Below, one piece after another: positions 24,979 to 50,540 of a stretch of DNA of 64,000 nt. Below the pieces are notes generated by a model. The model was not told where the DNA came from. It saw only the letters and a list, made by a program, of their open reading frames with translations, and did no database searches. The stretch is from Minisyncoccia bacterium (GTDB lineage: Bacteria > Patescibacteriota > Minisyncoccia > Phycocordibacterales > PALSA-1337). The first letter of the stretch is position 1. Each line of letters starts with the position of its first letter. The translations under genes and the position numbers were made by a program. The DNA lies in the NCBI GenBank assembly GCA_049997795.1, contig JBEKVT010000001.1, forward strand, positions 173,222 through 237,221, in the 5' to 3' direction.

Positions 24979-25803
24979 ATGATGGCCGTGATGGATGTCA
25001 GACCGAAAAAGTCGCTCGGCCAGCATTTCCTGAATTCGCCGGCCGCGATCGCGAAGATAGTCGAAGCTGCCAGAATAGTGCCGGGTGAAACCGTCTTAGA
25101 GATAGGCCCGGGTACCGGAGTTTTGACGGATGCCTTGCTTAAGGCCGGGGCACGAGTCGTCGCTGTGGAAAAAGATGTTCGCTCTTTCGAATTCCTGAAA
25201 GAAAGATTCTCAAAAAATATTGCTGACGGGGCATTGGCCCTGCATCAGACAGACATTTTAAAAACGGATCGCACCGGCCTCGGATTGAAAGATGCCTCGT
25301 ACGCTGTGGTGGCCAATATCCCTTACTACATAACCGGCGCCATCCTCGAATCGTTCCTGGAATACGAGCCGCGGCCCGATAGGATGGTCTTGTTGGTCCA
25401 AAAAGAGGTGGCCGAACGTATCGTCGCTAAGAATAAAAAAGAGGGTGTCCTTTCTATATCGGTGAAGGCCTTCGGTACGCCTCGGATCATTTCAAAAGTC
25501 CAGCGCGGGGCTTTCACGCCACCGCCAAAGGTAGATTCGGCCATATTAGCCATCGCTGGCGTATCCGACCAGAATTTCAAGCAAAATGGCCTTGAAATAA
25601 GGCGTTTTTTTGAGGTCATCAAGGCCGGGTTCGCTCATAAAAGGAAGCTTGTAAGGCGTAATCTGGAGGGCACCGCGAGCACACCAAAAATTAGCCGCGC
25701 TTGGAAAAAATTAAGCCTGGATGAAAAACTCCGGGCTGAGGATATGACGCTTGAAGATTGGCTAGGTATCGCTAAAGAGACGCAGAACCCACCTTGGGGG
25801 TAA
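24979..25803 (+). CDS. rsmA: 16S rRNA (adenine1518/1519-N6) dimethyltransferase
   Basis: LGQHFL start motif and SAM-binding GPGTGVLT. Confidence 0.9.
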   Translation: MMAVMDVRPKKSLGQHFLNSPAAIAKIVEAARIVPGETVLEIGPGTGVLTDALLKAGARVVAVEKDVRSFEFLKERFSKNIADGALALHQTDILKTDRTGLGLKDASYAVVANIPYYITGAILESFLEYEPRPDRMVLLVQKEVAERIVAKNKKEGVLSISVKAFGTPRIISKVQRGAFTPPPKVDSAILAIAGVSDQNFKQNGLEIRRFFEVIKAGFAHKRKLVRRNLEGTASTPKISRAWKKLSLDEKLRAEDMTLEDWLGIAKETQNPPWG

Positions 25804-26764
25804 TCACTCCCTCAACCGGGGCGGGGTAACAGTAAGGTGCGACTCCCATGTAACACAGCGGAGTTGATGGAGAATACGTGCCAAGAAGCCACGGGGTTGC
25901 CGGTATGTTATACGAGAGAAACGCCTGGGAAAACGGCACATATGCTAGAGAAGCTACATATGACGGAGGTAGCGGTGATATTGTAGTCCACCATGTGGCG
26001 CTGCACGTGCAAGGAAGAGCATAGACGAGGCTGCCGCCAAACGGCACGCCCGTGAATGCCGATGCTTGTTCAGGAGTGAATATCTTACCAAGCACTGCGG
26101 TTATGTTCGTCAGTATTACAGCAAACAAAGAATCGGGCTGGTCAGACGAGATAGCTTTTTTCCCCACCAGTCCTATGAACTCATGCTTTAAATCAGTCGT
26201 TGTGGCGATCTCCTTCATGACTTGGTCCTTGATGATGGCAACGGTTTGCGGGGACATGCCCTGTTTTGCCGAGACCTTGTCTATTGTAGCCAAAAATTTG
26301 TCTAGATTGACCAAGTTAGGATTGCCTACGGCTACCGAGTCTGTTGGGAGGAAAGCCGAGGACGTGGTTGATACGACGGCCCCAACCGATGAGCCTGGCG
26401 CAGTTTCTAAACCTGAAAGTACGGCCGCGGTGGAGGGCCCAACGATCCCCGTTCCGGCGCTGAGGCTGTTCGGCATTAAGATTTCTTGTTGATATTTATC
26501 CTGGAAACGCGTGACTGCGTCTTTTGTAAGTTGTCCAAAGTAGCCTGTTTCTTGGCCGGGAGAGCCTGGGCCGGCATTCGCTATCCTGGTCGTGAGATCG
26601 TTGTTCAAAACTTCCTGCAATTGGCGGACGTCTTCACCAGATACGCCGATCCTGAGCGTCCTTGTGAAAGACAGTTCTGCCGCCATGGCTCTCTGGACGT
26701 GCGCGGCATCCAAAAGCACGCACAGGACGACTGCCGCGATGATTGTGTGTGAGATTTTCATCAT
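25772..26764 (-). CDS. secreted protein with putative peptidoglycan-binding domain
   Basis: signal peptide MMKISHTIIAAVVLCVLL; PG_binding_1-like segment LRIGVSGEDVRQLQEVLN...GYFGQLTKDAVTRFQ; 3' end overlaps the rsmA end by about 30 nt. Confidence 0.5.
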   Translation of the reverse strand: MMKISHTIIAAVVLCVLLDAAHVQRAMAAELSFTRTLRIGVSGEDVRQLQEVLNNDLTTRIANAGPGSPGQETGYFGQLTKDAVTRFQDKYQQEILMPNSLSAGTGIVGPSTAAVLSGLETAPGSSVGAVVSTTSSAFLPTDSVAVGNPNLVNLDKFLATIDKVSAKQGMSPQTVAIIKDQVMKEIATTTDLKHEFIGLVGKKAISSDQPDSLFAVILTNITAVLGKIFTPEQASAFTGVPFGGSLVYALPCTCSATWWTTISPLPPSYVASLAYVPFSQAFLSYNIPATPWLLGTYSPSTPLCYMGVAPYCYPAPVEGVITPKVGSASL

Positions 26765-26771
26765 TGGCGTG

Positions 26772-26780
26772 ATTATATCA
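26772..26780 (-). promoter_or_regulatory. extended -10 (TGaTATAAT on the minus strand) 7 nt upstream of the 26764 start
   Basis: reverse complement of attatatca; divergent partner of the 26821-26829 promoter. Confidence 0.45.
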
Positions 26781-26805
26781 TGTTCTGTTAACAACCTTGC
26801 GCCCA

Positions 26806-26821
26806 AAATACGGCCGTATTT
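26806..26821. promoter_or_regulatory. 16-bp perfect palindrome AAATACGGCCGTATTT (candidate operator)
   Basis: self-complementary 16-mer abutting the TGcTATAAT -10 of the T4SS-like operon promoter, and lying between two divergent leaderless promoters. Confidence 0.45.
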
Positions 26822-26829
26822 GCTATAAT
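26821..26829 (+). promoter_or_regulatory. extended -10 TGcTATAAT, 12 nt upstream of the ATG at 26842
   Basis: tttGCTATAATctacccggcactATG; no Shine-Dalgarno in the gap. Confidence 0.5.
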
Positions 26830-26841
26830 CTACCCGGCACT

Positions 26842-27684
26842 ATGGCCGCTTACCCGCGCAAACAGACTGTGGTGATTTTTATCCTATGTGCCCTTGCTGT
26901 CGGTGGCATAGCTTTCTACGTCTACGGAGGATTCACGGTCACCGGGACCAGCTCGGGGCGTCAGTCTGGGGTTGCAACTGCCGCGGTTCAGAATCTGTCG
27001 ACCTCTAATGTCGATTGGCAAAAACAGTTTTTGGGCGCGGCTGCAAACACAAGCGCCTTCAAGGCAACGGGGACCATGGTCGCATCCAAAAACGACGCGG
27101 GCCTGACCGCCGTCGATGACCTGGGGAGAAATTTTTTCACCAAGTATGCCGAGTTGCGCCAGTCTGGCTTGACGACCGATCCACAGACTGTGAACGATGC
27201 TATGGGACAGGTCGCCTCGCAGGCCGTTAGTGAGTTGTCCGGGCCAAAGGTCTACTCGTTGAAAGACATCGTGATTGGCGGGAACAGCAGAACTGTCACA
27301 AGCGCCTATGGCAACGCTGTGGTGTTGGTCTTCAGAGACTATATGCCCAAACAAAATGAGGCAGTGGTGGCCCAACAGGCCTTCGACGATAACGATATGA
27401 GCGAGTTAGCACAAATCAATCCGATCATTTCAAGCTACAAGGATGCGATATCGCTGCTCATTAAGATACCGACGCCACAACCGCTCGCTCAATACCACGT
27501 CAATCTGATAAATGGCTTGAGTATCGCTCTTTACAATGCCGAATCGTTCCGCCACGTAGACACCGACCCAGTGCGCGGCCTGGCGGCAGTCGGTCTGGAG
27601 ATGGTGTGGCTGAAGGATGTCTCTCTGGCGATCGCGGATATCCAAAATTACTTCATCGGTGCCGGCATCCCTTTCGGAGTATGA
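26842..27684 (+). CDS. hypothetical membrane-anchored protein, first gene of the T4SS-like operon
   Basis: N-terminal anchor QTVVIFILCALAVGGIAFYVYGG, remainder hydrophilic; start chosen at MAAYPRK (track ORF from 26797). Confidence 0.45.
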   Translation: MAAYPRKQTVVIFILCALAVGGIAFYVYGGFTVTGTSSGRQSGVATAAVQNLSTSNVDWQKQFLGAAANTSAFKATGTMVASKNDAGLTAVDDLGRNFFTKYAELRQSGLTTDPQTVNDAMGQVASQAVSELSGPKVYSLKDIVIGGNSRTVTSAYGNAVVLVFRDYMPKQNEAVVAQQAFDDNDMSELAQINPIISSYKDAISLLIKIPTPQPLAQYHVNLINGLSIALYNAESFRHVDTDPVRGLAAVGLEMVWLKDVSLAIADIQNYFIGAGIPFGV

Positions 27685-27696
27685 TCATAAGATAAG

Positions 27697-29253
27697 ATGA
27701 CCACTTCACTTCAAAGACACAGCAATAAGACAAAAGGCATTCTTGTGCTGATACTCGCCGTGGTCTTTCTATTCTATGGAGCGAGAGAGAACCAGGTCAG
27801 CGCCCAAGTGAAAGAGAATCCAGCCACCGTTCCTATCGGCACCGGCTGGGATCCGAATTCAATCATGGCCGACATGAAAAACTTCATCCTGGACAAGCTT
27901 GCTTCCACGGTCGCCAAACAGATTCTTCAACAAATGACCGTCGCCACCATCAATTGGATCAATTCCGGTTTCAACGGCAGCCCGGCCTTCCTGACCAATC
28001 CGGAAGGATTCTTCCTGGATACCGCCGACCAGATCACGGGAGCGATGATAGCCGAGAGCGGGCCGCTCCAAAAGCTCTGTTCGCCGTGGAACGTAGACAT
28101 CAGGCTGTCGCTGGCCCTCCTGCAGACCCAGCCCTTGTCTCAACGTTACATATGCACTCTGAGCACTGTCATCAACAATGCCAGCAACGCGACGATAGGC
28201 GGCCACAGCATCCAAGGCTTCGTGAGGGGAGATTTCTCTCAGGGCGGCTGGCCGGCCTTCATATCCATGACAACCGAGCCGCAGAATAATCCTTACGGGA
28301 TCTATCTCCAGGCCCATAGCGACATCTTGAGCGCCGTCGGAGCGAAACAGTCGTTCATCAACCAAGATCTGTTACAAGGTCACGGGTTCTTGTCATGGAA
28401 GAGCTGTAAGAACGTGCAGGTCTCGGCTCTGGACGCCAATCAAGCTATTTTTGGCAGCGCGTCCGTGCTCGGCAGTTCCGGCAACACCAGCGACAACAAC
28501 GGGTCGGTATTGCAGACCGTCCAACAGTGCGAGACCGAGACTCCAGGTTCCGTCATAGAGAACTCCCTTGCCGAGCACCTCGGCACCGGCGTAAGGGAGC
28601 TCGAGCTGGCCAACGACATAAATTCCGTCGTCAACGCCCTGGTCTCGCAGCTAGTCAGCCAGATGCTGACCAAAGGCCTGCGCTCTCTGAGTGCTGGCGG
28701 TTCCGGCCTAAGCGGCAACGGCTTGAGCAGCCTGAATTCATACACTTCCCAGTTACAAGCTGACGCCACGGCGCAAAAAAGCGTGCCGAATGTGGCGTCG
28801 ACTGGGTTCGGCTCGTCGTCTTCGGCCGAGTCGACATATGACCAGGCGATTGGCCTCATCACCGATAGCAAGGACCGCTACGAGACCGCTCGGTCGTGTT
28901 TCACCAACAAGCCAGATTACGCGGCCGCTCCCAGCGCATATAGCGCGGTCCTTGCCATAGACAACACCGTAGAGACCAGCATCGATCCCCTTCTCACGAA
29001 CCTCGCGGCCAAACGAGCAAGCGTCGCCAGCGCCCCAGAGAGCCCGGCCACCCTGAGCGTCTCCGCTACGACCGACATCGGCCAGCTGGTCGAATCCCAA
29101 ACGCAGATCGTCAACGACGCAGTCTCGCAAGGCCAAGCGAGCTCCGACCAGGCGGCGGCAGCGGCGACGGATCTGGAAAATGCCCAGACCCAAGCCCAGG
29201 CGTTCAACCAGGACGCTGCCAGATACCAGTCTGAATGCGATTCCATGCAATAA
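27697..29253 (+). CDS. hypothetical large secreted protein
   Basis: 518 aa, signal peptide GILVLILAVVFLFYGARENQVSAQ; Ser/Thr/Gln/Ala-rich; no identifiable catalytic motif. Confidence 0.45.
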   Translation: MTTSLQRHSNKTKGILVLILAVVFLFYGARENQVSAQVKENPATVPIGTGWDPNSIMADMKNFILDKLASTVAKQILQQMTVATINWINSGFNGSPAFLTNPEGFFLDTADQITGAMIAESGPLQKLCSPWNVDIRLSLALLQTQPLSQRYICTLSTVINNASNATIGGHSIQGFVRGDFSQGGWPAFISMTTEPQNNPYGIYLQAHSDILSAVGAKQSFINQDLLQGHGFLSWKSCKNVQVSALDANQAIFGSASVLGSSGNTSDNNGSVLQTVQQCETETPGSVIENSLAEHLGTGVRELELANDINSVVNALVSQLVSQMLTKGLRSLSAGGSGLSGNGLSSLNSYTSQLQADATAQKSVPNVASTGFGSSSSAESTYDQAIGLITDSKDRYETARSCFTNKPDYAAAPSAYSAVLAIDNTVETSIDPLLTNLAAKRASVASAPESPATLSVSATTDIGQLVESQTQIVNDAVSQGQASSDQAAAAATDLENAQTQAQAFNQDAARYQSECDSMQ

Positions 29254-29258
29254 AGCCG

Positions 29259-31196
29259 ATGAAAAAGCACTTGCCGCGCATAATCTGTATCTTCTCTCTC
29301 TCCACCTTGATCGTCGGGGTGTTCGGCCACGTGGCGCAGGCACAGTCCATCATCAGCAGCGTGCTCGGCTACGGCAACTTCGCCGCCCTTTTTGCCGAAG
29401 TCGTCGCCACGTTCATGAACTGGCTGATCACGGGCATGAGCGTCCTATTGGCCCTGGCCGGCTATCTCCTCAATTTCTCCATAAACCTCACTCTGAACAT
29501 CAAGAGCTTCGTGGACAGCTCCCCCGCCATATACAACACCTGGCGGGCCATCAGGGACATCAGTGACATGTTCATCATCTTCGTCCTTCTGTACGCCGCC
29601 ATCAGGCTCATCTTGGGCTTCGACGCCAAGTTCGGCTCGCTCATCAAGAACATCGTCGTCGCCGGCGTGCTCATAAATTTCAGCTTCTTCTTCGCCGGCC
29701 TGGGCATCGACGCCTCGAACATCATATCCGTACAGCTCTACAACGCCATCGCGCCGGCCAACAGCCTGAACGCCGGCACAGTGAGCTCGAACATGTTCCA
29801 AGGCAGCTTCACGACCGGTCTTGACGGCGGGCTGTCGGACGTCTTCATGAGCTCGCTGAAGATCCCGGCCCTGTATAACGAGAGCCTCACGGACCAGTCG
29901 GCCGCGAGCAAGACGGTGAGCGGGAATACCATCGGGGCGGGCACGGTTTCGGCGCCGCTCAAGATATTCCTCATGGGGGTAGTGGCGCTCGTGATAGAGC
30001 TGACCGCTACCCTGAGCTTCGCCGTGGCGGCCCTCGCCTTCGTCATCAGGTTCGTGATACTCCTATTGCTCCTGGCTTTCTCGCCGATATGGTTCGCCTC
30101 TCATGTGGTGCCAATGACGGCGGAATACGCCAAGAAATGGGTCAGTGCCTACAAGGGCATGCTCATCTTCATGCCGGCTTATCTCCTGCTCATGTATCTA
30201 GCCCTGAACGTCCTCACCACCAGCCCGCTTTTCGGCACCCTGAACAGCGCGGGGGCGCTGGGGAACGGGAAGTGGTACAGCGACTTCCTCGTCCTCGGCG
30301 TCAACGCCGCCATCGTCATCATCCTACTGAACGCGCCTCTGGTCGCCGCCGCCTCGATCGCCGGCACCTCGATCCCGCTCCTCGACAAGGCCGCCAAGAG
30401 CATCGGAGCTAGAGCGATATGGGGCAGGGTCGGGGGGTTTGCCGGGACGCACACCGCGGGCGCCTGGGCCGGCAGACTGGACAAGGGCCTCGCCGGTACG
30501 TGGGCCGGGAATACCCTGCTTGGAAGGGATATAAGGGATGTGACTACCGGCCCTCTGGCCAAGAGCAGGATGGGCGGAGTCCGTTCTTATGAGGAGAGGG
30601 TCACCGCCAGGAAAGAGGTGACTAAGAAGGCCAAGGAAATAGAGCACGGCGAAAGATTGGACAGCCTTCTAGACGAGGTCAAGGCCGGCAAGCCGATGAA
30701 GATCGACCCTGTCACTGGCAAACCCATGATAATGTCGATCATCGGGCAGATGAATGAGAAAGAGAAGCTGGCATTCATCGGGAAGAATGTCAAGGACGAG
30801 GCGGCTCTCAAGGAGATAATCAAACATGTCAAATCGTCAGACTTCGAGGCCGTCAAAAAATCAGACGATCTCCTGGATGAAGAGAAGATAAAGATCGCTA
30901 ACATGCGCAAGGACGCCTTGAACGACGCCCTCAGTAAACACCAGGCTGAAGCAATAAAGAACATGCTGGATAATATGGACGGCAAGGAGCTGCTGAAGCT
31001 TGGCGGCGGCACCTTGATACTCGATGAGGTGATCGGCAACTTGAAACCGAGCCAACTCAAGAATATGGCTGACGAGGGGCTGGATGACACGACAAAGCGC
31101 GTCATTGGGGGCGCGATAGATACGTGGCTCACTGCTCACGGAACTCCTCATCGCGCCAGAGGATATGTGAACAAGAATAGAGCCGAATGGACATGA
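29259..31196 (+). CDS. VirB6/TrbL-like polytopic membrane protein with long charged C-terminal domain
   Basis: signal peptide MKKHLPRIICIFSLSTLIVGVFGHVAQAQS, then at least 6 hydrophobic helices (e.g. LLMYLALNVLTTSPLFG), then a 250-aa Lys/Glu-rich coiled-coil-like tail; sits just upstream of the VirB3-like and VirB4 genes as in Gram-positive T4SS operons. Confidence 0.5.
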   Translation: MKKHLPRIICIFSLSTLIVGVFGHVAQAQSIISSVLGYGNFAALFAEVVATFMNWLITGMSVLLALAGYLLNFSINLTLNIKSFVDSSPAIYNTWRAIRDISDMFIIFVLLYAAIRLILGFDAKFGSLIKNIVVAGVLINFSFFFAGLGIDASNIISVQLYNAIAPANSLNAGTVSSNMFQGSFTTGLDGGLSDVFMSSLKIPALYNESLTDQSAASKTVSGNTIGAGTVSAPLKIFLMGVVALVIELTATLSFAVAALAFVIRFVILLLLLAFSPIWFASHVVPMTAEYAKKWVSAYKGMLIFMPAYLLLMYLALNVLTTSPLFGTLNSAGALGNGKWYSDFLVLGVNAAIVIILLNAPLVAAASIAGTSIPLLDKAAKSIGARAIWGRVGGFAGTHTAGAWAGRLDKGLAGTWAGNTLLGRDIRDVTTGPLAKSRMGGVRSYEERVTARKEVTKKAKEIEHGERLDSLLDEVKAGKPMKIDPVTGKPMIMSIIGQMNEKEKLAFIGKNVKDEAALKEIIKHVKSSDFEAVKKSDDLLDEEKIKIANMRKDALNDALSKHQAEAIKNMLDNMDGKELLKLGGGTLILDEVIGNLKPSQLKNMADEGLDDTTKRVIGGAIDTWLTAHGTPHRARGYVNKNRAEWT

Positions 31197-31864
31197 ATAT
31201 GAACCCACAAGAAGTACCAGAGACAATCAAGAGGTTGGCCGATGACCCGAAGATATATGACGCGATAGAAAAAATCGGGGACAAATTCGACCTGCACATC
31301 GATCAGATCGGGGACCTGGATGCGGAGGTGCGCAGGGTCATACTCGGCATAAGCAAGCCGACTGAGTTCATAAAAAACATCGCTAAGCTGCTGGAGATCG
31401 ACCAAGACAAGGGGGGGCGGATAGCTGAAGAGATAAACAAAGACGTAATTCAATCTATAAGATCCGAGCTGCAGTCACAGACATCGGATAACAGAGCCGC
31501 CGATAACCTATCTCCCATCGAGCGCGCTGGCGGTTTCGAGATAGAGCGGGAACCGGCGAAAAACGCCTCAGACGAGAAGGCCCGGGCCATGACGGAGACC
31601 CAGAAGATAAACATGCTCTCGGACATCGAGAGTCCGACGCCCATCAGGAAGGCGGTCCCGCAGGGCGAAGAGACCTTGAAGACGCTGCAGGGCGAAGAGA
31701 TCAGAAGGGAGCCTTTGGTAGATAGGCTTCTCAAGAATCCTTTGTCCCTTCCGGAGGAAAAGGTCGAGGGGGTCCCGGAAAGGGCACCGGCAGCGAGACC
31801 AGCGCCGAAGGCGGAGCCGCCGCGCAACCTGCCGACGAACGATCTTTATAGGGAGCCCGTCTGA
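31193..31864 (+). CDS. hypothetical acidic soluble protein
   Basis: start overlaps the preceding stop (ATGA); Asp/Glu-rich, no TM segments. Confidence 0.4.
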   Translation: MNMNPQEVPETIKRLADDPKIYDAIEKIGDKFDLHIDQIGDLDAEVRRVILGISKPTEFIKNIAKLLEIDQDKGGRIAEEINKDVIQSIRSELQSQTSDNRAADNLSPIERAGGFEIEREPAKNASDEKARAMTETQKINMLSDIESPTPIRKAVPQGEETLKTLQGEEIRREPLVDRLLKNPLSLPEEKVEGVPERAPAARPAPKAEPPRNLPTNDLYREPV

Positions 31865-31892
31865 CGGCCGCTTTTTGGGCATTGGCTGCCTC

Positions 31893-31903
31893 TGCGGTAT
31901 AAT
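31893..31903 (+). promoter_or_regulatory. -10 element TATAAT 11 nt upstream of the ATG at 31915
   Basis: ctgcggTATAATagaaggccaagATG. Confidence 0.4.
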
Positions 31904-31914
31904 AGAAGGCCAAG

Positions 31915-32349
31915 ATGCGCTTCCAAGTCCCTCAATTCATCGAGGTCGAAGACAGGATCTTCGGGCCGCTCACTCTGAAACAATTCATATATCTGGCCGG
32001 GGGCGGCGGGCTTTCTTTCCTCGTATACGTCCTCGTCGGGAACATCGCCATAGCCATCCTTCCTATCCTCGTCATCATGGGGGGCGTATCGGCCTTGGCG
32101 TTCTATAAGGTCAACAACAAGCCCCTGATCGGCGTCCTGGAGTCGGCTTTCAAATACTGGCTCGGGGGCAAATTGTACATCTGGAAGAAAGAGGCCCGGC
32201 AGCCGCCGACCACGGCCGAAGCCGCAGCCAAGGACGTCAAGAGCTTCGCCTCGGTCATGGTGCCGAAGATCTCCGACAGCAAGCTGAAGGACTTGTCATG
32301 GAGCCTGGATATCAAAGAGAGCATATATTCGAGCAAGGATCAAAAGTGA
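31915..32349 (+). CDS. PrgI/TcpE-like (VirB3-like) small T4SS membrane protein
   Basis: N-terminus MRFQVPQFIEVEDRIFGPLTLKQFIYLAGGGG followed by two TM helices; matches the PrgI-family pattern of Gram-positive conjugation systems; stop overlaps the next start (TGATG). Confidence 0.55.
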   Translation: MRFQVPQFIEVEDRIFGPLTLKQFIYLAGGGGLSFLVYVLVGNIAIAILPILVIMGGVSALAFYKVNNKPLIGVLESAFKYWLGGKLYIWKKEARQPPTTAEAAAKDVKSFASVMVPKISDSKLKDLSWSLDIKESIYSSKDQK

Positions 32350-32993
32350 TGGCCAAGACCCAAGACACAACCCAGGATTTCGTGCCGATCCAGGAGATCC
32401 GCGACGGCGTGGTCATCCTGAAAGACGGCGGCATGCGCGCCATCATCCTGGCGACTTCCCTCAATTTCGCCCTGAAATCGGGTGATGAGCAGAGCGCCAT
32501 CCTGCTCCAGTTCCAGAATTTCCTGAACTCGCTGGACTTCTCCATCCAGATCTTCGTCCAGTCGAAGAAGCTCGACATCCGCCCCTACATCGCCCTCCTC
32601 GAAGACCGATACAAAGAGCAGGTGACTGAGCTCATGAAGATCCAGGTCCGCGAGTACATCGAGTTCATCAAGACCTTCGTGGAATCCACCAATATCATGT
32701 CTAAGAGCTTCTTCGTGGTCATACCGTATGACCCGCCGATACTATCGAACAAGAAGAACCCTCTTTCAGGCGTCTTTGGCGGCAAGAAGAAGGGCGGAGC
32801 GGGAGCCGCGGCCTCGCTCGACCAGCAATTCCAGGAATATCGGGGCCAGCTCGAGCAGCGCGTGGCGGTGGTCGAACAGGGCCTGGTGCGATGCGGCATC
32901 AGGGCGGCCGAGCTCGGCACCGAAGAGGTGGTGGAGCTATTCTATAAGATCTTCAATCCCGGCGAGACCGAGAAGCCTATACAGATAACATGA
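32349..32993 (+). CDS. virB4: VirB4-family ATPase, N-terminal domain fragment (split gene)
   Basis: DFVPIQEIRDGVVILKDGGMRAIILATSLNFALKSGDEQSAILLQFQNFLNSLDFSIQIF resembles the N-terminus of Gram-positive VirB4 homologues (ConE/PrgJ/TcpF type); ends with ATGA overlap onto the next ORF in another frame. Confidence 0.6.
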   Translation: MAKTQDTTQDFVPIQEIRDGVVILKDGGMRAIILATSLNFALKSGDEQSAILLQFQNFLNSLDFSIQIFVQSKKLDIRPYIALLEDRYKEQVTELMKIQVREYIEFIKTFVESTNIMSKSFFVVIPYDPPILSNKKNPLSGVFGGKKKGGAGAAASLDQQFQEYRGQLEQRVAVVEQGLVRCGIRAAELGTEEVVELFYKIFNPGETEKPIQIT

Positions 32994-34804
32994 GCATATT
33001 CTCGAAATTATTCGGCAAAAAGGCGCCTTCGCCCATCGTCTCGGTCCTCCCCGAAGAGATATATCAGGCTGGGGTCTTGGAATTGAAGGACGTCATCGCC
33101 CCGTCGGCCCTGAAGGTGAGCCCCAAGGACGTCAACCTGGGCGAGAAGGTCGGCCGGACGCTCTTCGTCATCTCATATCCGCGCTTCCTGGACGAGAGCT
33201 GGTTCGCGCCGATTATAAATCTCGACAAGGTCTTCAACGTCTCCATATTCATCCATCCCGTCGACACCGCCAAGATCCTTCGCCACTTCCAGAAGAAGGT
33301 CGCTGAGGTCCAGAGCCAGATATCGAGAAGGGAAGAGAAGGGCTTGGTCAGGGACCCGGCCCTCGACACCGCCTATCAGGACCTGGAGACCCTTCGCGAC
33401 CAGCTGATGCAGGCCCAGGAGCACCTTTTCGACGTCGGCGTCTACATAACCATCTTCGCCGACTCCGAGAACGAGCTAGACAAGCTGGAGTCGGAGATCA
33501 AATCAATCCTCGAAGCCAAGCTGGTCTATCTGAAACCGGCCTTGTTCCAGCAGGAGCAGGGCTTCAAGAGCGTCATCCCGATCGGCGATGACCAGCTGGC
33601 GGTCCATTCAAAATTGAATTCCTCGCCCCTCTCGAGCGTCTTCCCGTTCGTGTCCTTCGATCTGACTTCCAACAAGGGCATCCTTTACGGCATCAACCGC
33701 CACAACTCCTCGCTGGTCCTCTTCGATCGTTACTCCCTGGAGAACTATAATTCGGTGACCTTTGCCGTGGCCGGCGCCGGTAAATCCTACTGCACAAAGC
33801 TCGAGATCCTCCGCACTCTTATGTTCGACGGCGATGTCCTGGTCATCGACCCTGAGAAGGAATATGAGTACATGTCGGAGGCCACCGGCGGCAAGTATTT
33901 CAACATCTCCCTCAATTCCGAGCATCATATTAACCCGTTCGACCTGCCGGCCGTGGCCGAGGACGAATCCGCCGCAGACGTCTTGCGCTCGAACATCATC
34001 AACCTGGTCGGCCTCTTCCGCATCATGTTGGGCGGCCTTTCCCAGGAAGAAGACGCCATCATCGACCGGGCCATCACCGAGACTTACGCCCTGAAAGACA
34101 TCACCGCCGAATCAAATTTCCAGAGCGTGGAGCCGCCGCTCCTGTCCGACTTCGAGATGGTCCTCGCGGGGATGGAGGGCGCGGACTCGCTGGTCCAGCG
34201 CCTGACCAAGTACACCAAAGGCACGTGGTCCGGCTTCATCAACCGCCCGTCCAACATCGACATCAACAACAAATTCATCGTCTTCTCGCTCCGCGACATG
34301 GAAGACGAGCTCAAGCCGGTGGCTATGTACATCGTCACCCATTACATCTGGAACGCCGTCCGAAGGGTCAGGAAGAAGAGGCTTCTGGTCATAGATGAGG
34401 CTTGGTGGATGATGAAATCAGAAGACACGGCCTCGTTCCTGTTCAGCCTGGCCAAGCGGGGCCGCAAATACTATCTGGGCTTGGCCACCATCACCCAAGA
34501 CGTGGATGACTTCTTGAGGTCCCCGTACGGCCTGCCGATCCTCACGAACTCGTCCATCCAGATACTCTTGAAGCAATCGCCGACGATCATCGACCATATC
34601 CAGAAGACATTCAATCTGACCGATGAAGAGAAGTACCTGCTCCTCGAATCCGACGTCGGCGAGGGCATCTTCTTCGTCGGCCTGAAGCATGTGGCCATCC
34701 AGATCCGCGCCTCGTACACCGAAGACCAAATCATAACCACCAATCCGGCCCAGGTCATGCAGATCGAGCAGGCCAAGAGGGACCTCGAGCAGGCCGGGGG
34801 CTGA
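32990..34804 (+). CDS. virB4: VirB4-family T4SS ATPase (C-terminal AAA domain-containing part)
   Basis: Walker A AVAGAGKSYCTKLE, Walker B LLVIDEAWWMM, downstream GLATITQD; 604 aa. Confidence 0.8.
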   Translation: MSIFSKLFGKKAPSPIVSVLPEEIYQAGVLELKDVIAPSALKVSPKDVNLGEKVGRTLFVISYPRFLDESWFAPIINLDKVFNVSIFIHPVDTAKILRHFQKKVAEVQSQISRREEKGLVRDPALDTAYQDLETLRDQLMQAQEHLFDVGVYITIFADSENELDKLESEIKSILEAKLVYLKPALFQQEQGFKSVIPIGDDQLAVHSKLNSSPLSSVFPFVSFDLTSNKGILYGINRHNSSLVLFDRYSLENYNSVTFAVAGAGKSYCTKLEILRTLMFDGDVLVIDPEKEYEYMSEATGGKYFNISLNSEHHINPFDLPAVAEDESAADVLRSNIINLVGLFRIMLGGLSQEEDAIIDRAITETYALKDITAESNFQSVEPPLLSDFEMVLAGMEGADSLVQRLTKYTKGTWSGFINRPSNIDINNKFIVFSLRDMEDELKPVAMYIVTHYIWNAVRRVRKKRLLVIDEAWWMMKSEDTASFLFSLAKRGRKYYLGLATITQDVDDFLRSPYGLPILTNSSIQILLKQSPTIIDHIQKTFNLTDEEKYLLLESDVGEGIFFVGLKHVAIQIRASYTEDQIITTNPAQVMQIEQAKRDLEQAGG

Positions 34805-34809
34805 CGACG

Positions 34810-35457
34810 ATGGCCTCGCGCATAGGAAAAGGGGAATGGATCGCCTTGTATGCCGCAACCGGCGCGATCGATCTCATCCAGTTCCTGATCGATTTCACCG
34901 GCGTCGGCGCCGGGGTGAACGAGGCCGCCGATCCGTTCATTGGCGTCGCTCTCGGCGGCTACTTCCAGCTGCGCGGAGTCTCGATGATCAAAAATATCAG
35001 CCGCCTCATGTCGCTTCTCGGCGTCGTCGGGTTGGAGGAAGTGACTTTCGGGGTCGCACCGGCCTGGGTCGTGGACACGTGGTACATCCACAAGACCGTG
35101 CGCCAAGAGAAAGTGGAACAAGAGGAGCAAGAACAGGGCGAGGCCGTAACTTTGAACGTGGCCGATCGGCCCTTGAATCAAGATGGTCGGCGTGAGCCAT
35201 CAGCAGACGGCTCCAAGCCGAGCCGCAACCAAGGTCTCCAACCGCTCAATGTGGACGGTGTAAGGTCACCAAGACCGTCATTGAGTTCGACAATAGGCTC
35301 GGCCGAGTTCAAATCACGGACGGAGAAAGAGATTCAGGATAAAACATATATTCAGGCCAAGTTGAGGGGCTATACTGAGGAACAAGCGACTGAACAGGCG
35401 ACAAACGCAACAAAACCTGATTATAAACAGGTCTGGAAGGCACACGGCGACAGTTAA
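34810..35457 (+). CDS. hypothetical membrane protein
   Basis: 215 aa, 2-3 hydrophobic helices in the N-terminal half, hydrophilic Glu/Gln-rich tail. Confidence 0.4.
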   Translation: MASRIGKGEWIALYAATGAIDLIQFLIDFTGVGAGVNEAADPFIGVALGGYFQLRGVSMIKNISRLMSLLGVVGLEEVTFGVAPAWVVDTWYIHKTVRQEKVEQEEQEQGEAVTLNVADRPLNQDGRREPSADGSKPSRNQGLQPLNVDGVRSPRPSLSSTIGSAEFKSRTEKEIQDKTYIQAKLRGYTEEQATEQATNATKPDYKQVWKAHGDS

Positions 35458-35493
35458 CCGTGCATAACCCGATATCACAGGAGTCTGATTATC

Positions 35494-35502
35494 TGATAAA
35501 AT
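35494..35502 (+). promoter_or_regulatory. internal extended -10 TGaTAAAAT 7 nt upstream of the ATG at 35510
   Basis: tctGATAAAATacagccaATG. Confidence 0.35.
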
Positions 35503-35509
35503 ACAGCCA

Positions 35510-36556
35510 ATGAATCGGTCCGTTCTTCTCTTCAAAACCGTTTTGTTGGTCATGGCTATCTCAGCCGTGGCGGCTTCGGCGGCCTTCGCCCAGGGCATCC
35601 CGACGACCATAGGTGGCCTGGAGCTCACAGCCTCGTCCGACAGCCCGGCCCCGGGCCAGTCAGTGACCATCACGGCCGCGAGCTACAGCGTCGATATCAA
35701 CGCCGCGAATCTGGTTTGGACGGCTGGCGGTAAGACGATAGCCAAGGGAGTCGGTGTAACAAGCGTCACGGTCCAGGCCCCGGCCTTGGGCAAGCGGCTC
35801 AAGGTGAACGTGTCGGCGGTCGCCTCGGACGGGACCTCCTTTAATAGTTCCGTAGTCATAGGCTCCGGCGCAGTGGACCTCATAATCGAGCCTGACGGTT
35901 ATGCGCCTCCCTTTTTCAAAGGAAAGCTGCCTGTGGTATACCAGAATGCCGTTAAGGTCACCGCCGTGCCCCATCTCGCCAATTCTTCGGGGGTCGAGTA
36001 CGACCCCAAGACCTTGGTGTACAAGTGGCAACAGGGTGATTCGGTATTGCAAGACCAGTCTGGATACGGCAGGCAATCGGTCGTTATACAGGGCGGCATC
36101 ATCCCGCGGGCCTATACTCTGACGGCCACAGTGACGACCCGCGACGGCAGTACGCAAGGGATGGGACTAACCACGGTATCTTTCGGACCTCCATCCCTAA
36201 TTTTCTACAGGAACGATCCATTGTACGGGCCTCTTTTCAACAACGCCATAGGGAACAGTATATATCTGGGAACCCAGCGCGAGGCTGGCGTCCTCGCAGT
36301 ACCTTACGGCTTCGGCCTGCCGGCGTCTGGCCTCGGCGATTTGTCGCTCGCTTGGTTCATCAACGGCAAGGAGCATCCGGAGTTGGCGTCGGGCGATTCC
36401 GTCACCCTGCGCGCGCCGGACAATTCGGCTGGGTCGTCGAACATCGAGCTGGACGTCGACAATAAGATCGACATCCTCCAACAGGCCAGTGCCATATTCC
36501 AGGCGGTGTTCAACGCCGCGGCGAGCACTACCTCGCAGTCGCCGGTGACTTTTTAA
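35510..36556 (+). CDS. hypothetical secreted beta-rich protein
   Basis: signal peptide MNRSVLLFKTVLLVMAISAVAASAAFAQG; repetitive beta-strand-like segments (VTITAASYSVDINAANLVWTAGG, VTVQAPALGKRLKVNVSAVASDG), suggestive of Ig-like folds. Confidence 0.45.
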   Translation: MNRSVLLFKTVLLVMAISAVAASAAFAQGIPTTIGGLELTASSDSPAPGQSVTITAASYSVDINAANLVWTAGGKTIAKGVGVTSVTVQAPALGKRLKVNVSAVASDGTSFNSSVVIGSGAVDLIIEPDGYAPPFFKGKLPVVYQNAVKVTAVPHLANSSGVEYDPKTLVYKWQQGDSVLQDQSGYGRQSVVIQGGIIPRAYTLTATVTTRDGSTQGMGLTTVSFGPPSLIFYRNDPLYGPLFNNAIGNSIYLGTQREAGVLAVPYGFGLPASGLGDLSLAWFINGKEHPELASGDSVTLRAPDNSAGSSNIELDVDNKIDILQQASAIFQAVFNAAASTTSQSPVTF

Positions 36557-36607
36557 TCAAATTCCGTGGACAATTCTCATCTCAAATCAATCGTCAAGGG
36601 GGGCCTT

Positions 36608-38053
36608 ATGGCCGCGGCTCTTTTGGCGCTAGCGTTAATGACCCCGCTGGCGGCCTCAGCACAAACGGCATCGTCTGGTGTGACGTCATTTTCAGCAGAA
36701 CCATTAACTTTACCGACAACTCCTTCTCCACAGACAGCGCCATCCTCACTAACAACATTACCACCAGCAACGTTATCTTTACCCGCAACACCTTCTTCTG
36801 TGACGCCGTTTTCGGCAGCACCATTAACCTTGCCAACCTTATTGCCCACGGCGCCTTCACAAAACAACCCAGTAAACAACCCGGCGGCGCCGACGTATAC
36901 CCCCCTCGAGCCGTTGCCGTGCATCCCCACAGGGAGCAGCACCTCTTGCACGAGTGGCGGAGTAACTTACACCAGGGGAAGTTCGATGAGCAGCGTCGAT
37001 TTTCAGGGCTATATCCAATACATGTTCAACCTGGCCATCGCCGTGGCGGCGGCCGCGGCTGTATTCATGATCGTCTTCGGCGGCTTCCAGTATATGACCA
37101 CCGACTCGTGGCAAGGGAAGAGCGCCGGGTTGGATAAGGCCAGGAACGCCGTCTATGGCCTTCTTTTGGTGCTCGCCTCATACCTCATCCTGCGGACCAT
37201 TGATCCGCGCCTGGTGGCCATCCCGAGCACTTTGGTGGCGCCGCTCAACATCAATTATGGGGGCCTGACCACGTCCGAGAGCCTTCTTTCCACGATAGCA
37301 AGCGACGCCAATCAATACTTATCTCAAGACAAGCAGTTCATGGGCGACGCCGCGGCGACGCAAAGCAAGATAACCGACCTGGAATCTCAGAAGACAGCTC
37401 TGGAAAACAAGATATGTTCGGCTCCAGGAAACTCTTGTCCTGGAGGCCCGGACGTCGCCAACCAGATGTGCAGTGACGCGATCTCCAACAAAGACGACCC
37501 TATCTATAATGATTGCGTGGCCCTGGCAAAGCTCAACGATCAGGAAGGCGGGCTCAAAGGAACGCTGTGGACTGAGACTGCGCAACATCTCATGGCCGGC
37601 AATCTGAGCGCGTGCTTCTCGACCGGCGGCGCCCAGTCGGACCCATCCGCCCAAGCGGACGCCTGTCATAAAATGATCAATGATTGGGCTAATACCTACA
37701 GCGGTCTGTCGACCGGGGCGGGACAATCGGCTCAAATGATAAGCGACTACGCCGCCTACGCGAACGCCATCATCGATATCCAAAAAACTATCCTGGCCTA
37801 TAACCCCGGCGCGGCCTCGACAATCAACACACTTGAGAACATCCAGAGTATAGCGTCCCTCGGCGCATCGAAGGCCTTAGGGACGAACACCATCGTCAGT
37901 TGGCTGTTACCTAACAGCTTGACTACCTCCGGGACCGTCAAGGGCATACAATCCATAGCGGACAAGACGACCATTCAGGACCCGTCCTTGAGAGCCCAAT
38001 TCGTCAGCCAAGTGCAGGCGTATGAGGCGCAGCTCAACGGCGGCAGAAAATGA
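36608..38053 (+). CDS. secreted protein with tandem Pro/Ser/Thr repeats and a VirB2/TrbC-like two-helix hydrophobic hairpin (candidate pilin)
   Basis: start chosen at the ATG preceded by the Shine-Dalgarno AAGGGGGG; signal peptide MAAALLALALMTPLAASAQT; two roughly 40-aa repeats (VTSFSAEPLTLPTT / VTPFSAAPLTLPT); hairpin YMFNLAIAVAAAAAVFMIVFGG-FQYMTTDSWQGKSAGLDKARN-AVYGLLLVLASYLIL. Confidence 0.4.
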   Translation: MAAALLALALMTPLAASAQTASSGVTSFSAEPLTLPTTPSPQTAPSSLTTLPPATLSLPATPSSVTPFSAAPLTLPTLLPTAPSQNNPVNNPAAPTYTPLEPLPCIPTGSSTSCTSGGVTYTRGSSMSSVDFQGYIQYMFNLAIAVAAAAAVFMIVFGGFQYMTTDSWQGKSAGLDKARNAVYGLLLVLASYLILRTIDPRLVAIPSTLVAPLNINYGGLTTSESLLSTIASDANQYLSQDKQFMGDAAATQSKITDLESQKTALENKICSAPGNSCPGGPDVANQMCSDAISNKDDPIYNDCVALAKLNDQEGGLKGTLWTETAQHLMAGNLSACFSTGGAQSDPSAQADACHKMINDWANTYSGLSTGAGQSAQMISDYAAYANAIIDIQKTILAYNPGAASTINTLENIQSIASLGASKALGTNTIVSWLLPNSLTTSGTVKGIQSIADKTTIQDPSLRAQFVSQVQAYEAQLNGGRK

Positions 38054-39366
38054 AAAAAACAAACCTCATCATATTGATAGCCGTGATCGTCTTCGTCCTC
38101 GTCGCAGCCGGAGGGACGTACTGGTTCTTCTTCATGCAAGCCCCGGCTCCGACTACGACCGGAACCGGCGGGACGGGCCAGTCCGGCTTCCAGCCCTTCG
38201 GCAGGACGACACCGTTCGGGGGCGGCTCGAATACAAATGCGACCGGCACGAGTACCGGTAACCAGAATTACAATGGTTGGGTACCGGGGGCTCCGTTCAA
38301 GCTTCCGATCTTGCGCTTGCTTTCCGACACGCCGATCGGCGGCTACGGCGCTTCGACCACTGCCTCGACTACCGTGGTGCGCTGGGTCGATCGGGGGAGA
38401 GGAAATGTGTATGAAGCGACGTATGATTCGCCGCTCATCACGACCATCTCCAACACCGTCGTGCCAAGGATATACGAGAGTATGTGGAACAAGAACTTAA
38501 CGGCCTTCATAGGCTCGCTCCTCCCGGACGGCGATCGGGCGCCAACGAACGTATATGCCCAGATCGTCGCCCATTCGACTTCGACCGGGGCCATGACGAG
38601 CACTGGAAGCGCATCTGGGAACGCCTCCGTCACGCCATTCGAACTGCGGGGCAAAAATCTGCCGACCGGCCTCATCGGCTACGCCGTCTCGCCAGACAAG
38701 AGCAAGCTATTCATGCTCATAAACCAGAATGGTAACGGCGTTGGGTATGTCTCGACCTTCGATGGTCAGAAGACGGCCGCGATCTTCACGTCCCCGCTCA
38801 CTGAGGTCAATGTCGACTGGCCGACGGATAACGCAATCGCCATAACCACCAAAGGATCGTCCGTCTATGACGGTTTCCTCTACCTGGTCAATCCGAAGAC
38901 TGGTGTATGGAAAAGAGCCGTCGGGCCGCTCCCGGGACTCAGCGCTTCGGTGAGCCACGATGGTAAATATGCTCTTGTCTCGTCGGCGGACGGCAACAAC
39001 GGAATCTCGACGAGCATATACTCTCTGGCCTCCGGCACTTCCGCAAACGCCGCAATCCATACCTTGGCTGACAAGTGCGCGTGGGGTAATTTCTACAAAG
39101 ACACGGTGTACTGCGCGGTGCCGTCGCAGGCTGTCACCGGAGCTTATCCGGAAGACTGGTACGCCGGCACGCTTTCGACCATCGACAAGATATGGCAGCT
39201 TGACGCCTTGACGGGAGGGGTCCGCCTGGTCTCCTCGATCACGGGCCAATCTGACCGTGTCGTCGATGCCTTCAACCTCGGCCTGGACGCCAAGGACGGC
39301 TACCTCTTCTTCATGAACAAGGATGACTTGTCTTTCTGGTCGCTGGACCTCGTGCGATCGCAATAG
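38050..39366 (+). CDS. membrane-anchored beta-propeller-like protein
   Basis: N-terminal anchor LIILIAVIVFVLVAAGGTYWFFF; Gly/Thr-rich linker; repeated segments resembling PD40/TolB-type blades (DGKYALVSSADGNNGISTSIYSL); start overlaps the previous stop (ATGA). Confidence 0.45.
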   Translation: MKKTNLIILIAVIVFVLVAAGGTYWFFFMQAPAPTTTGTGGTGQSGFQPFGRTTPFGGGSNTNATGTSTGNQNYNGWVPGAPFKLPILRLLSDTPIGGYGASTTASTTVVRWVDRGRGNVYEATYDSPLITTISNTVVPRIYESMWNKNLTAFIGSLLPDGDRAPTNVYAQIVAHSTSTGAMTSTGSASGNASVTPFELRGKNLPTGLIGYAVSPDKSKLFMLINQNGNGVGYVSTFDGQKTAAIFTSPLTEVNVDWPTDNAIAITTKGSSVYDGFLYLVNPKTGVWKRAVGPLPGLSASVSHDGKYALVSSADGNNGISTSIYSLASGTSANAAIHTLADKCAWGNFYKDTVYCAVPSQAVTGAYPEDWYAGTLSTIDKIWQLDALTGGVRLVSSITGQSDRVVDAFNLGLDAKDGYLFFMNKDDLSFWSLDLVRSQ

Positions 39367-39408: not shown

Positions 39409-40152
39409 CTACATCTTGAGGTGCCTCTTTCGTATGTACAATTCCTGGAAGAGCGTCATGAGAGAGCTGGTCATCCAGTAGACGGCCATAACGGATGATG
39501 CTTCGGGAAAGCGGGCGGGAATGATCCAGTATATCGAAACGAAAGCCAGGACTGGCACGAGATATTTCATCTGCGTGTTCATTGAATCAGCCAGTCTGGC
39601 CGGCGAGCTCTGTCCTGGCGGGGCTTTGGGCGCCTGCTTGGCTTGTTTGGAGGCCAGCGAGAACTGGAGCTGGAGGAATTGGATGATGCCCGTGGCGACC
39701 GCCAGGATGAGGCTCGGCTTGGTCAAATCTATGAACCCGAGAAAATTGGTCTTCAGAATGGGCGCGAAAACTAGAGGGTATAGGAGGTTGGTTTGGACCG
39801 TCGGGATGATCTTATAGAAGACCGAGATGAGCGCGAGCAGGATGGGCAGTTGGATGATAAGGAGCAGGAAGCCGGAAAAGGGCTTGACGCCCTTCTCCTT
39901 GTAGAGCTCCATGATCTTCAAGGCCTGGACCTGGCGGTCGCTCGCATACTGGTTCCTCAGCCTGTTCGCCTCCGGCTCGATGCTCTTCATGCGCACCTGG
40001 GTGAGCAGGGCCGACTTCGAGAGAGGGAAGAGGATGACTTTGACGATCGCCGTGAAGATTATCACTGCTATGCCCACGTCAATCCACGGCAAGAGGTCCA
40101 TGATGACGATCAAGCAGTTGTAGAGCGGCCGGAAGATGAACTCGTTATACAT
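39409..40152 (-). CDS. yidC: membrane protein insertase YidC (short form)
   Basis: LLPWIDVGIAVIIFTAIVKVILFPLS and 5 TM helices typical of YidC/Oxa1; conserved rnpA-yidC order; start chosen at MYNEFIF. Confidence 0.8.
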   Translation of the reverse strand: MYNEFIFRPLYNCLIVIMDLLPWIDVGIAVIIFTAIVKVILFPLSKSALLTQVRMKSIEPEANRLRNQYASDRQVQALKIMELYKEKGVKPFSGFLLLIIQLPILLALISVFYKIIPTVQTNLLYPLVFAPILKTNFLGFIDLTKPSLILAVATGIIQFLQLQFSLASKQAKQAPKAPPGQSSPARLADSMNTQMKYLVPVLAFVSIYWIIPARFPEASSVMAVYWMTSSLMTLFQELYIRKRHLKM

Positions 40153-40163
40153 GTCGTGTAATG

Positions 40164-40517
40164 TTAGCGCAAAACCCCGGCCTTCACAAAAAGATCTCGG
40201 AGGTCGCATGTCATCTCCGTCATTGTGGCGGTCGTGGCCTTCCTCGTGGCGAACACAATGGCGCGGAGGCCCGTTTTACCGACCATCCGGAGCAGGGGCC
40301 TGGCCGCGGCATACATCCGGCGTCTCATGGCGTTCCTGGTCACGGCCGTCTTGGCGATCCTCTTCGGCGCCACGACGGATGCGCGGAAACTCTTTCCGTC
40401 GCCGGCGTCAAACGATCTCAATAAGAAAAGGGGGGAATGAAAAATCCTCCCTTTTTCCATCGTTTCATCGAATTGTCCCTTGGAAAGCCTATTAGATCGG
40501 CGGAACATCCTGTTCAT
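40164..40517 (-). CDS. rnpA: ribonuclease P protein component
   Basis: RLSKGQFDETMEKGRIFHSPLFLL matches the RnpA family; start (MNRMF) overlaps the rpmH stop by 1 nt. Confidence 0.7.
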   Translation of the reverse strand: MNRMFRRSNRLSKGQFDETMEKGRIFHSPLFLLRSFDAGDGKSFRASVVAPKRIAKTAVTRNAMRRRMYAAARPLLRMVGKTGLRAIVFATRKATTATMTEMTCDLRDLFVKAGVLR

Positions 40518-40651
40518 TATACCGCTATGCGGCGGCGCCCCTTGGCTCGGCGACGGGCCAGGGTCCTTTTGCCGCCGGGGGTTCTCATTCTCGTTCTGAA
40601 CCCGTGAGACCTGGCGCGCTTGCGTTTTCTCGGTTTGTAGGTGAACGACAT
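40517..40651 (-). CDS. rpmH: 50S ribosomal protein L34 (below the ORF-track length cutoff)
   Basis: hand translation [44 protein letters not shown], 44 aa, classic L34 sequence. Confidence 0.85.
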
Positions 40652-40670
40652 GTGGGAAGAGCATAGCAGA

Positions 40671-40709
40671 CTATCCACAAATTATCAACATGTTTTTCAG
40701 ACATCCACA
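40671..40709 (+). promoter_or_regulatory. cluster of three DnaA-box-like 9-mers upstream of dnaA
   Basis: CTATCCACA, TTATCAACA and ACATCCACA in the same orientation within the 106-bp rpmH-dnaA spacer (consensus TTATCCACA). Confidence 0.5.
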
Positions 40710-50530: not shown

Positions 50531-50540
50531 ATTCCCGCTA

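Follow-up and report, generated by a model that had tools for sequence, protein, structure and literature searches.

The 64,000-nucleotide stretch analysed here (hereafter the window) belongs to contig JBEKVT010000001.1 of a Minisyncoccia bacterium (assembly GCA_049997795.1) and contains, at positions 26842–39366, eleven genes related to type IV secretion systems (T4SS). Intact and strongly conserved genes for the T4SS inner-membrane core and a pilin are located beside the replication origin, with no DNA-processing genes nearby. The locus most probably represents the chromosomal, vertically inherited T4SS of Patescibacteria (Candidate Phyla Radiation, CPR) in its Paceibacteria arrangement, serving a host-dependent life rather than conjugation. 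The genes are designated g1 to g11 in their order on the + strand (TM, transmembrane; aa, amino acids; MPF-FATA, the mating-pair formation type of Gram-positive systems); with their immediate neighbours they are as follows.

25772–26806 (-): divergent PG_binding_1 protein, 344 aa, exported (PF01471, E 2.9e-7)
26842–27684 (+): g1, bitopic membrane protein with a TM helix and a predicted four-helix-bundle domain
27697–29253 (+): g2, exported or anchored protein of 518 aa, member of a large uncharacterised family
29235–31196 (+): g3, extended VirB6/TrbL-like polytopic membrane protein, likely true start 29259
31187–31864 (+): g4, acidic soluble protein of 225 aa with a C-terminal D-x-Y-R-E motif
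31915–32349 (+): g5, PrgI/VirB3-like small membrane protein (PF12666)
32349–32993 (+): g6, TrsD-like, free-standing homologue of the VirB4 N-terminal domain (NCBIfam N-terminal matches)
32990–34804 (+): g7, VirB4 ATPase of the CD1110 / MPF-FATA type (NF045971, PF19044)
34810–35457 (+): g8, fast-evolving protein of 215 aa, no family match
35510–36556 (+): g9, secreted protein, probable tandem Ig-like beta-sandwich domains (weak Ig-fold matches)
36566–38053 (+): g10, VirB2-like T4SS pilin of 495 aa with extensions (PF18895)
38050–39366 (+): g11, membrane-anchored, probably TolB-like beta-propeller (weak propeller matches)
39409–42101: origin-proximal housekeeping block yidC (-), rnpA (-), rpmH (-), dnaA (+) (Pfam 60KD_IMP; public Ribonuclease_P and Bac_DnaA calls)

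The eleven co-directional open reading frames (ORFs) are tightly packed and every reading frame is intact. The spacing in bases is +12 for g1-g2, -19 for g2-g3 (or +5 if g3 starts at 29259), -10 for g3-g4, +50 for g4-g5, -1 for g5-g6 (TGATG), -4 for g6-g7 (ATGA), +5 for g7-g8, +52 for g8-g9, +9 for g9-g10 and -4 for g10-g11 (ATGA). The gene coordinates and overlapping junctions given in the first-pass annotation, which was made from the sequence alone, were thus confirmed; the start it set for the whole locus, 26764, falls inside the divergent gene. Gene calls in the public record of the source contig, made independently, concur for all genes of the locus except g10. A scan for promoter and terminator consensus sequences yielded no more sites than expected by chance, and the two notable ones are located in the 50-nt gaps preceding g5 and g9.

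The product of g7 scores 379 bits, against a cut-off of 325, on NF045971 (the VirB4-like CD1110 family, an NCBIfam equivalog), covering positions 184–733 of the 752 of the profile, and also matches PF19044 (E 1e-26). The Walker B motif LLVIDE was located by pattern search; the Walker A motif, AVAGAGKS, was read off the translation and fits [AG]x4GK[ST], a stricter pattern search having given no match. The nearest solved structure is that of VirB4 from Thermoanaerobacter (4AG5, E 3e-38), with TrwK of plasmid R388 at only 4e-4. By these similarities the ATPase is of the Gram-positive (MPF-FATA) type. An identical VirB4 protein is on record from a Minisyncoccia metagenome-assembled genome. At least 8,000 sequences were scored in a VirB4 similarity listing; among the 120 matches listed none falls below 89% identity, and wherever a source names the organism, it is a Patescibacteria group. 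Membership in a non-T4SS ATPase family (FtsK/HerA) was rejected, since DUF87 matches with E 3e-6 against 379 bits to the VirB4 equivalog.

Related loci were collected by scanning species-representative genomes, which gave 80 loci from Paceibacteria-type metagenome-assembled genomes (Taylorbacteria, Zambryskibacteria and others) with VirB4 76–93% identical. The matches of the g6 product to VirB4 models are confined to their N-terminal parts (CD1110 positions 1–105; VirB4_plasma, E 5.8e-11); it also matches TrsD (E 1.6e-7) and, among precomputed matches, the TraC-like family PF26593. Its gene overlaps g7, which supplies the remainder, by 4 bases. VirB4 is therefore encoded in two pieces, as had been read earlier. 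The separate N-domain gene is a conserved feature rather than the result of a frameshift, because VirB4 is about 604 aa long in all relatives and g6 was found in 80/80 related loci.

The small membrane protein g5 matches PF12666 PrgI (E 1.2e-10) above the curated cut-off. The larger membrane protein g3 comprises about eight hydrophobic helices and a charged tail of approximately 270 aa, predicted to be cytoplasmic. It has no Pfam match itself, and a search of PDB sequences with its orthologue profile gave nothing significant; PF04610 TrbL/VirB6, matched by 8 of 61 orthologues (best E 6e-5), is the sole recurrent family among them. This likeness through orthologues points to an extended, divergent protein of the VirB6/TrbL type. 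The core order VirB6-like, VirB3/PrgI, VirB4, together with the Gram-positive affinity, was proposed in the first-pass annotation and is borne out by PF12666 and NF045971 and, via the orthologues, by PF04610.

The pilin-like character proposed for g10 is upheld by a match to PF18895 T4SS_pilin just above the cut-off (E 4e-6, 27.2 bits versus 26.6). The pilin domain comprises residues 150–210, with hydrophobic helices at 156–174 and 194–212. On its N-terminal side lie a signal peptide, a duplicated Pro/Thr-rich repeat insert (residues 35–110) and a conserved YTxLxPLP motif (Y111); on its C-terminal side it is followed by a Cys-containing extension of approximately 280 aa. The orthologues likewise carry extensions, variable in length, of a kind absent from normal VirB2 pilins. 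The public gene call starts this gene at 36986 (355 aa) and lays a spurious minus-strand ORF over its upstream part. The 495-aa ORF beginning with GTG at 36566 is the likely product, because the YTxLxPLP motif and the signal peptide lie in frame upstream of 36986. A profile of g10 orthologues gave nothing significant against all PDB sequences.

Synteny and identity were counted by sequence detection in the 42 loci having enough DNA on both sides. The order rsmA, (g1) g2 g3 (g4) g5 g6 g7 (g8) g9 g10 g11, yidC, rnpA, dnaA, dnaN is conserved, and the operon occupies the same site in all of them (42/42). The genes g3, g5, g6, g7, g9 and g11, as well as yidC and dnaA, were detected in 42/42 loci, g2 in 41/42, g10 in 39/42, g1 in 30/42, g4 in 20/42 and g8 in 8/42. 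Median identity is 79% for VirB4 (g7), a value somewhat inflated relative to the other genes as the loci were chosen as best VirB4 matches, 65% for the TrsD-like g6 and 55% for PrgI (g5); it is 59% for DnaA, 47% for DnaN and 49% for RsmA, and 27–33% for g1, g2, g3, g9 and g11. Even with loci selected by VirB4, it is evident that the motor is under tight constraint and that the exported parts evolve fast, a pattern fitting a host interface; the locus is therefore neither a recent mobile element nor a decaying remnant. The GC content of the locus (0.55–0.59) matches that of its flanks. The fixed chromosomal nature and native base composition suggested in the first-pass annotation were both corroborated, the former by the rsmA-yidC/dnaA site common to all 42 relatives. 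An integrative and conjugative element (ICE) was ruled out by this synteny and by the housekeeping flanks.

The exported and accessory proteins are less easily classified. In the predicted structure of g1, a TM helix (residues 7–28) is connected by a disordered linker to an all-alpha extracytoplasmic domain forming a four-helix bundle (residues 90–274). The g2 protein comprises a conserved Cys-containing domain (approximately residues 55–330) and a C-terminal three-helix coiled coil (373–516). Its AlphaFold2 model, built from 120 sequences, is of moderate quality (mean pLDDT 66.6) and mostly helical, with the coiled coil predicted confidently; a Foldseek search of this moderate model against the PDB returned coiled-coil noise only and no fold or NTF2 match. 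According to these models, g1 and g2 are neither VirB8-like nor VirB1-like, g1 being a helix bundle and g2 having no fold match, and the comparison with VirB8 and VirB1 that had been suggested for them came out negative. No Pfam or NCBIfam model matches g2, and its homologues are all labelled "hypothetical." They are numerous: a search of 1.84 billion cluster representatives with the g2 profile retrieved 5,598 (50%-identity clusters) at E<=1e-3 and 4,724 at E<=1e-10. The invariant residues include W87, N89, G91, P96 and Cys153/Cys278. DUF4141, weakly matched in some homologues only, falls on the signal-peptide region and was not used. The g2 proteins could become a newly curated family associated with T4SSs.

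The g4 protein lacks a TM segment, carries a net charge of -11 and has no family match (Pfam, NCBIfam) and no PDB match. Residues D219, Y221 and E223 of its C-terminal motif are invariant across 26 orthologues; this end motif resembles a short docking peptide, and g4 is possibly an adaptor. Likewise, no Pfam or NCBIfam family matches g8, for which a positional equivalent (an ORF of 110–340 aa between virB4 and g9) is present in 65/75 loci, with sequence similarity in only 8/42. Profiles built from orthologue alignments of g1, g2 and g4 gave nothing significant against all PDB sequences.

The N terminus of g9 is signal-like. Its orthologues show weak recurrent matches to Ig-fold families (BiPBP_C in 14/61, Ig_3 in 10/61 and PKD_3 in 5/61), and its profile gave a weak hint of Hoc among PDB sequences (E 0.005). 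The g11 protein has a TM segment at residues 6–24; its profile matched several TolB chains in the PDB (E 0.04–0.5) and its orthologues weakly match the propeller families DPPIV_N, DUF5050 and PD40. These weak matches make the Ig-like fold of g9 and the beta-propeller fold of g11, both named in the first-pass annotation, plausible without proving either. Profile searches and two structure predictions bore out the earlier statement that most accessory proteins fall into no recognisable family; the implied novelty of the system does not hold, as it has been described already (Wang et al., 2023, PMC10633639; Quinonero-Coronel et al., 2025, PMC12102498).

In the product of the divergent gene next to g1 (25772–26806, -), a PG_binding_1 domain is combined with a C-terminal region rich in Cys and Pro; no hydrolase domain was detected. 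Such a protein is encoded at the equivalent position in 18/42 related loci. It is a possible wall-associated accessory of the T4SS, although its membership in the system is uncertain.

The operon is flanked by rsmA on one side and by yidC-rnpA-rpmH/dnaA-dnaN on the other. Around the locus, the larger ORFs of the window with a family match are all housekeeping genes. They comprise nusA, tig, clpP, rny, cca, pnp, a comM-like gene, uvrD/pcrA and rsmA, among others, on the rsmA side, and yidC, rnpA, rpmH, dnaA, dnaN, a class A penicillin-binding protein gene, ruvC, ruvB, pilB, polA, fpg, a Mur ligase gene and ruvA on the dnaA side. Type IV pilus genes and further housekeeping genes follow past both window ends. 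No relaxase and no type IV coupling protein (T4CP) were found among the larger ORFs of the window (most of those of at least about 170 aa), as had been stated earlier for relaxase and VirD4, nor in the precomputed Pfam matches on public gene calls for 10 kb and 6 kb past the window ends; altogether the search covered approximately 79 kb of the 657-kb contig. The further statement that the window lacks an integrase is not strictly correct: a Xer-type tyrosine recombinase is encoded at 13953–14882 (-), 12 kb upstream of the locus among housekeeping genes, and is separated from it by the PNPase, comM-like, uvrD and rsmA genes.

Between the end of g11 and the start of dnaA the distance is 1.4 kb. 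The rpmH-dnaA spacer contains two adjacent DnaA boxes with one mismatch each (40671–40690); the number of DnaA boxes across the window is not above chance. The cumulative GC skew has a local minimum near 38–39 kb. If oriC is located in the rpmH-dnaA spacer (40671–40760), the 12.5-kb operon runs toward the origin, head-on to the replication fork, and this orientation is kept in all 42 relatives.

Several other features of the window were observed. A PilB-type ATPase (48857–50746, -) and a weak PilM-like ORF (62827–63987, +) are encoded in the window, and a second PilB/PilC/pilin cluster is located directly beyond its left end (extension stretch L084, 3037–8411), so that the origin region has pilus genes to either side. 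Positions 7000–14000 form a patch in which the GC content is lower (0.46–0.50 versus about 0.58 elsewhere); it holds genes for a short-chain dehydrogenase/reductase, a metallophosphoesterase, the CCA-adding enzyme, an ExoIII-like nuclease and the Xer-type recombinase, as well as, at 10002–11111, four genes for tRNAs (Gly, Pro, Gly and Arg). The 457-aa ORF at 60975–62348 is not one gene: tRNA-Ser (61438–61525, -) lies inside it, and the public calls comprise a RuvX gene and a small gene with a tRNA_bind domain. Two ORFs amid housekeeping genes, 2135–3187 (350 aa) and 18216–19655 (479 aa), have no Pfam match.

How the apparatus assembles, forms a pilus and moves a substrate in one direction or the other we infer as follows. 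The cytoplasmic-membrane core would consist of VirB4 (g7), TrsD (g6), PrgI (g5) and g3 as an extended channel protein of the VirB6 type. Going by what is established for T4SSs, VirB4 and TrsD, anchored by PrgI/VirB3, would sit on the VirB6 platform and drive extraction and assembly of the pilin. The VirB2-like pilin g10 could then form a surface filament or conduit, and the lineage-peculiar exported or anchored proteins g1, g2, g9 and g11 may constitute an extracellular part that crosses the wall and contacts the host. Such an apparatus would export proteins into, or take macromolecules from, a bacterial or archaeal host cell. In a more far-reaching version, g1, g2, g9, g11 and the extended g10 would form a Paceibacteria-specific extracellular module that replaces VirB8, VirB1 and adhesins and turns the T4SS into a feeding conduit for host RNA, nucleotides or other macromolecules. 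We consider this version improbable; if true, the T4SS would belong to a functional class of its own, new also in its structural parts.

Of the alternatives to a host-directed T4SS in general, an import machine drawing host DNA, RNA or nucleotides through a pilus or channel, by analogy with the archaeal Ced system, is unlikely, yet fares best. Nucleotide synthesis is missing from the lineage, and feeding on host RNA has been reported for a cultivated relative: in a preprint (bioRxiv 10.64898/2026.06.21.733656), tubes at the parasite-host interface were suggested to be T4SS pili, and uptake of host RNA was proposed. Also, the T4SS of the ABY1 class co-localises with comF, recG and radA (PMC12102498), and g7 has a weak match to the DNA-import model CedB (E 4.5e-8). 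This match, however, is far below those to conjugative VirB4 models, no CedA-like partner was recognised in the window locus, and no bacterial VirB4 system of the Patescibacteria clade is known to work in the import direction. Moreover, loss of comEC in Southlakia epibionticum, a cultivated Saccharibacterium, ends competence and not viability (PMC12857230), and ComEC-mediated DNA uptake is therefore not the essential role.

A working machine for conjugation or DNA export is very unlikely; its coupling protein, and a relaxase that escaped recognition, would have to be encoded at other sites in the genome. All core parts of a mating channel are present in the locus, most Patescibacteria genomes encode VirD4-like homologues of the T4CP, as a rule at a distance from virB4 (PMC12102498), and the inspection made here covered about 79 of 657 kb. 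On the other hand, a survey of 3,035 Patescibacteria genomes turned up no more than 109 relaxases, and in S. epibionticum the T4SS genes are essential but the T4CP, encoded at a distance, is not (PMC12102498). The fixed origin-side position in 42/42 species, the housekeeping flanks and the lack of att sites or element borders at the locus also argue against conjugation.

A decaying ICE remnant without current function, which would account for the failure to find a relaxase, T4CP, VirB8 or VirB1 in the scanned region and for the tyrosine recombinase 12 kb upstream, is effectively refuted by the eleven intact reading frames with coupled junctions and intact Walker motifs (A as read from the translation), by a VirB4 more conserved than DnaA over 42 species with operon order and position kept, by the native base composition, and by the Xer-like character of the recombinase and the housekeeping genes in between.

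Several points nevertheless weigh against a host-directed T4SS. No VirB8-like or VirB1-like component was found in the locus. For the NTF2-fold VirB8, the g1 and g2 models were negative and profile searches of g4, g8, g9 and g11 gave no VirB8 match; for a VirB1-type hydrolase, no lysozyme, transglycosylase, CHAP or NlpC domain was detected in the eleven proteins or in the divergent PG_binding_1 protein, and an Amidase_3 gene is located 18 kb away. Gram-positive T4SSs normally carry both components. The VirB6 assignment of g3 is indirect. Polymerisation of g10 into a pilus is not assured, because its match is marginal and its size about four times that of a normal VirB2, and the selection of loci by VirB4 enlarges the identity contrast to some extent. 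With T4CP homologues common elsewhere in Patescibacteria genomes (PMC12102498) and approximately 580 kb of the contig outside the scan, a role in DNA transfer is possible. Finally, the substrate, the effector and the direction of transport cannot be read from the sequence, in which export of an effector and import of macromolecules look alike.

The Patescibacteria T4SS belongs to the small number of machines that probably account for the way in which a very large group of ultra-small bacteria depend on a host and live at the expense of other cells. The window locus is a clean and complete Paceibacteria example of it, having a motor conserved more than DnaA and quickly divergent exported parts. 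The proteins g2, g9, g11 and the extended pilin are conserved partners which current T4SS profiles and structure searches leave unclassified, and they are sensible targets for structural and genetic work as soon as a Paceibacterium becomes amenable to manipulation.

Among known systems, the archaeal Ced system (CedA/CedB) resembles the window locus in being non-conjugative, in having a VirB4-family ATPase and in lacking a relaxase. However, g7 is far more similar to bacterial VirB4 than to CedB, a partner resembling CedA was not recognised, and import is hypothetical for the window locus. Conjugative MPF-FATA systems, such as pCF10 (PrgH-PrgI-PrgJ), the CD1110-type ICEs of C. difficile and pGO1 (TrsC-TrsD-TrsE), share the order VirB6-like, VirB3-like, VirB4, and pGO1 also encodes a free-standing TrsD-type homologue of the VirB4 N terminus. 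In contrast to pCF10, ICEBs1 and pCW3, the window locus has, in the scanned region, no relaxase, T4CP, recognisable VirB8, VirB1 hydrolase or LPXTG adhesin, and it is not located on a plasmid or ICE, as is indicated by the housekeeping genes around it, its native GC content and a position that is the same in 42 species. It has, on the other hand, a VirB2-like pilin, unlike the conjugative systems of Gram-positive bacteria, which to our knowledge lack one.

Closer is the T4SS of S. epibionticum, where epibiotic growth requires the cluster together with its pilins (PMC10633639; PMC12857230) and recognisable coupling and relaxase proteins are absent (Wang et al., 2023, Cell, PMC10633639). Comparison with Saccharibacteria, proposed in the first-pass annotation, revealed the same core order in the ML1 cluster SEML1_0006-0019: VirB6-like, PrgI, an unannotated protein of approximately 290 aa at the TrsD position, and VirB4. 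An exported Ig-fold protein (SEML1_0005) is encoded beside the cluster, PF18895 pilins are present, and the cluster is located a few genes from the chromosome start, akin to the position of the window locus near the origin. The S. epibionticum cluster differs in having six small tandem pilins, the lysozyme SEML1_0006 and the NTF2-like (VirB8-type) SEML1_0012. The window locus instead has a single 495-aa pilin and no lysozyme; it additionally encodes g1 and g2, neither of them NTF2-like, and the probable membrane-anchored beta-propeller. Essentiality is established for S. epibionticum only.

The closest counterpart is the system delineated in a survey of 3,035 Patescibacteria genomes (Quinonero-Coronel et al., 2025, Microb Genom, PMC12102498), in which VirB4 forms a monophyletic clade nested in MPF-FATA. 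TrsD is the commonest companion of virB4 there, PrgI/VirB3, VirB6 and PF18895 pilins are encoded nearby, homologues of VirB8 and VirB1 are scarce, and the Paceibacteria locus is chromosomal, near dnaA, dnaN, rnpA, ksgA and rpmH. The window locus agrees in its VirB4 with adjacent TrsD, PrgI/VirB3, VirB6 homologue and PF18895 pilin, in the absence of a nearby relaxase or T4CP, and in its chromosomal position beside dnaA, dnaN, rnpA, ksgA (rsmA) and rpmH; there is no essential difference between them. A 2025 review likewise treats the Patescibacteria T4SS as non-conjugative and possibly pilus-forming (PMC12857230). By its gene content, the window locus is a descendant of the T4SS family with a T4SS-like channel and, on available evidence, not a conjugation system. 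The system, its missing relaxase and its proximity to dnaA were already published in 2023–2025, and the locus is a typical member. The small additions made here are the conservation of g1, g2, g4, g8, g9 and g11, the negative structural results for g1 and g2, and the extended architecture of the pilin.

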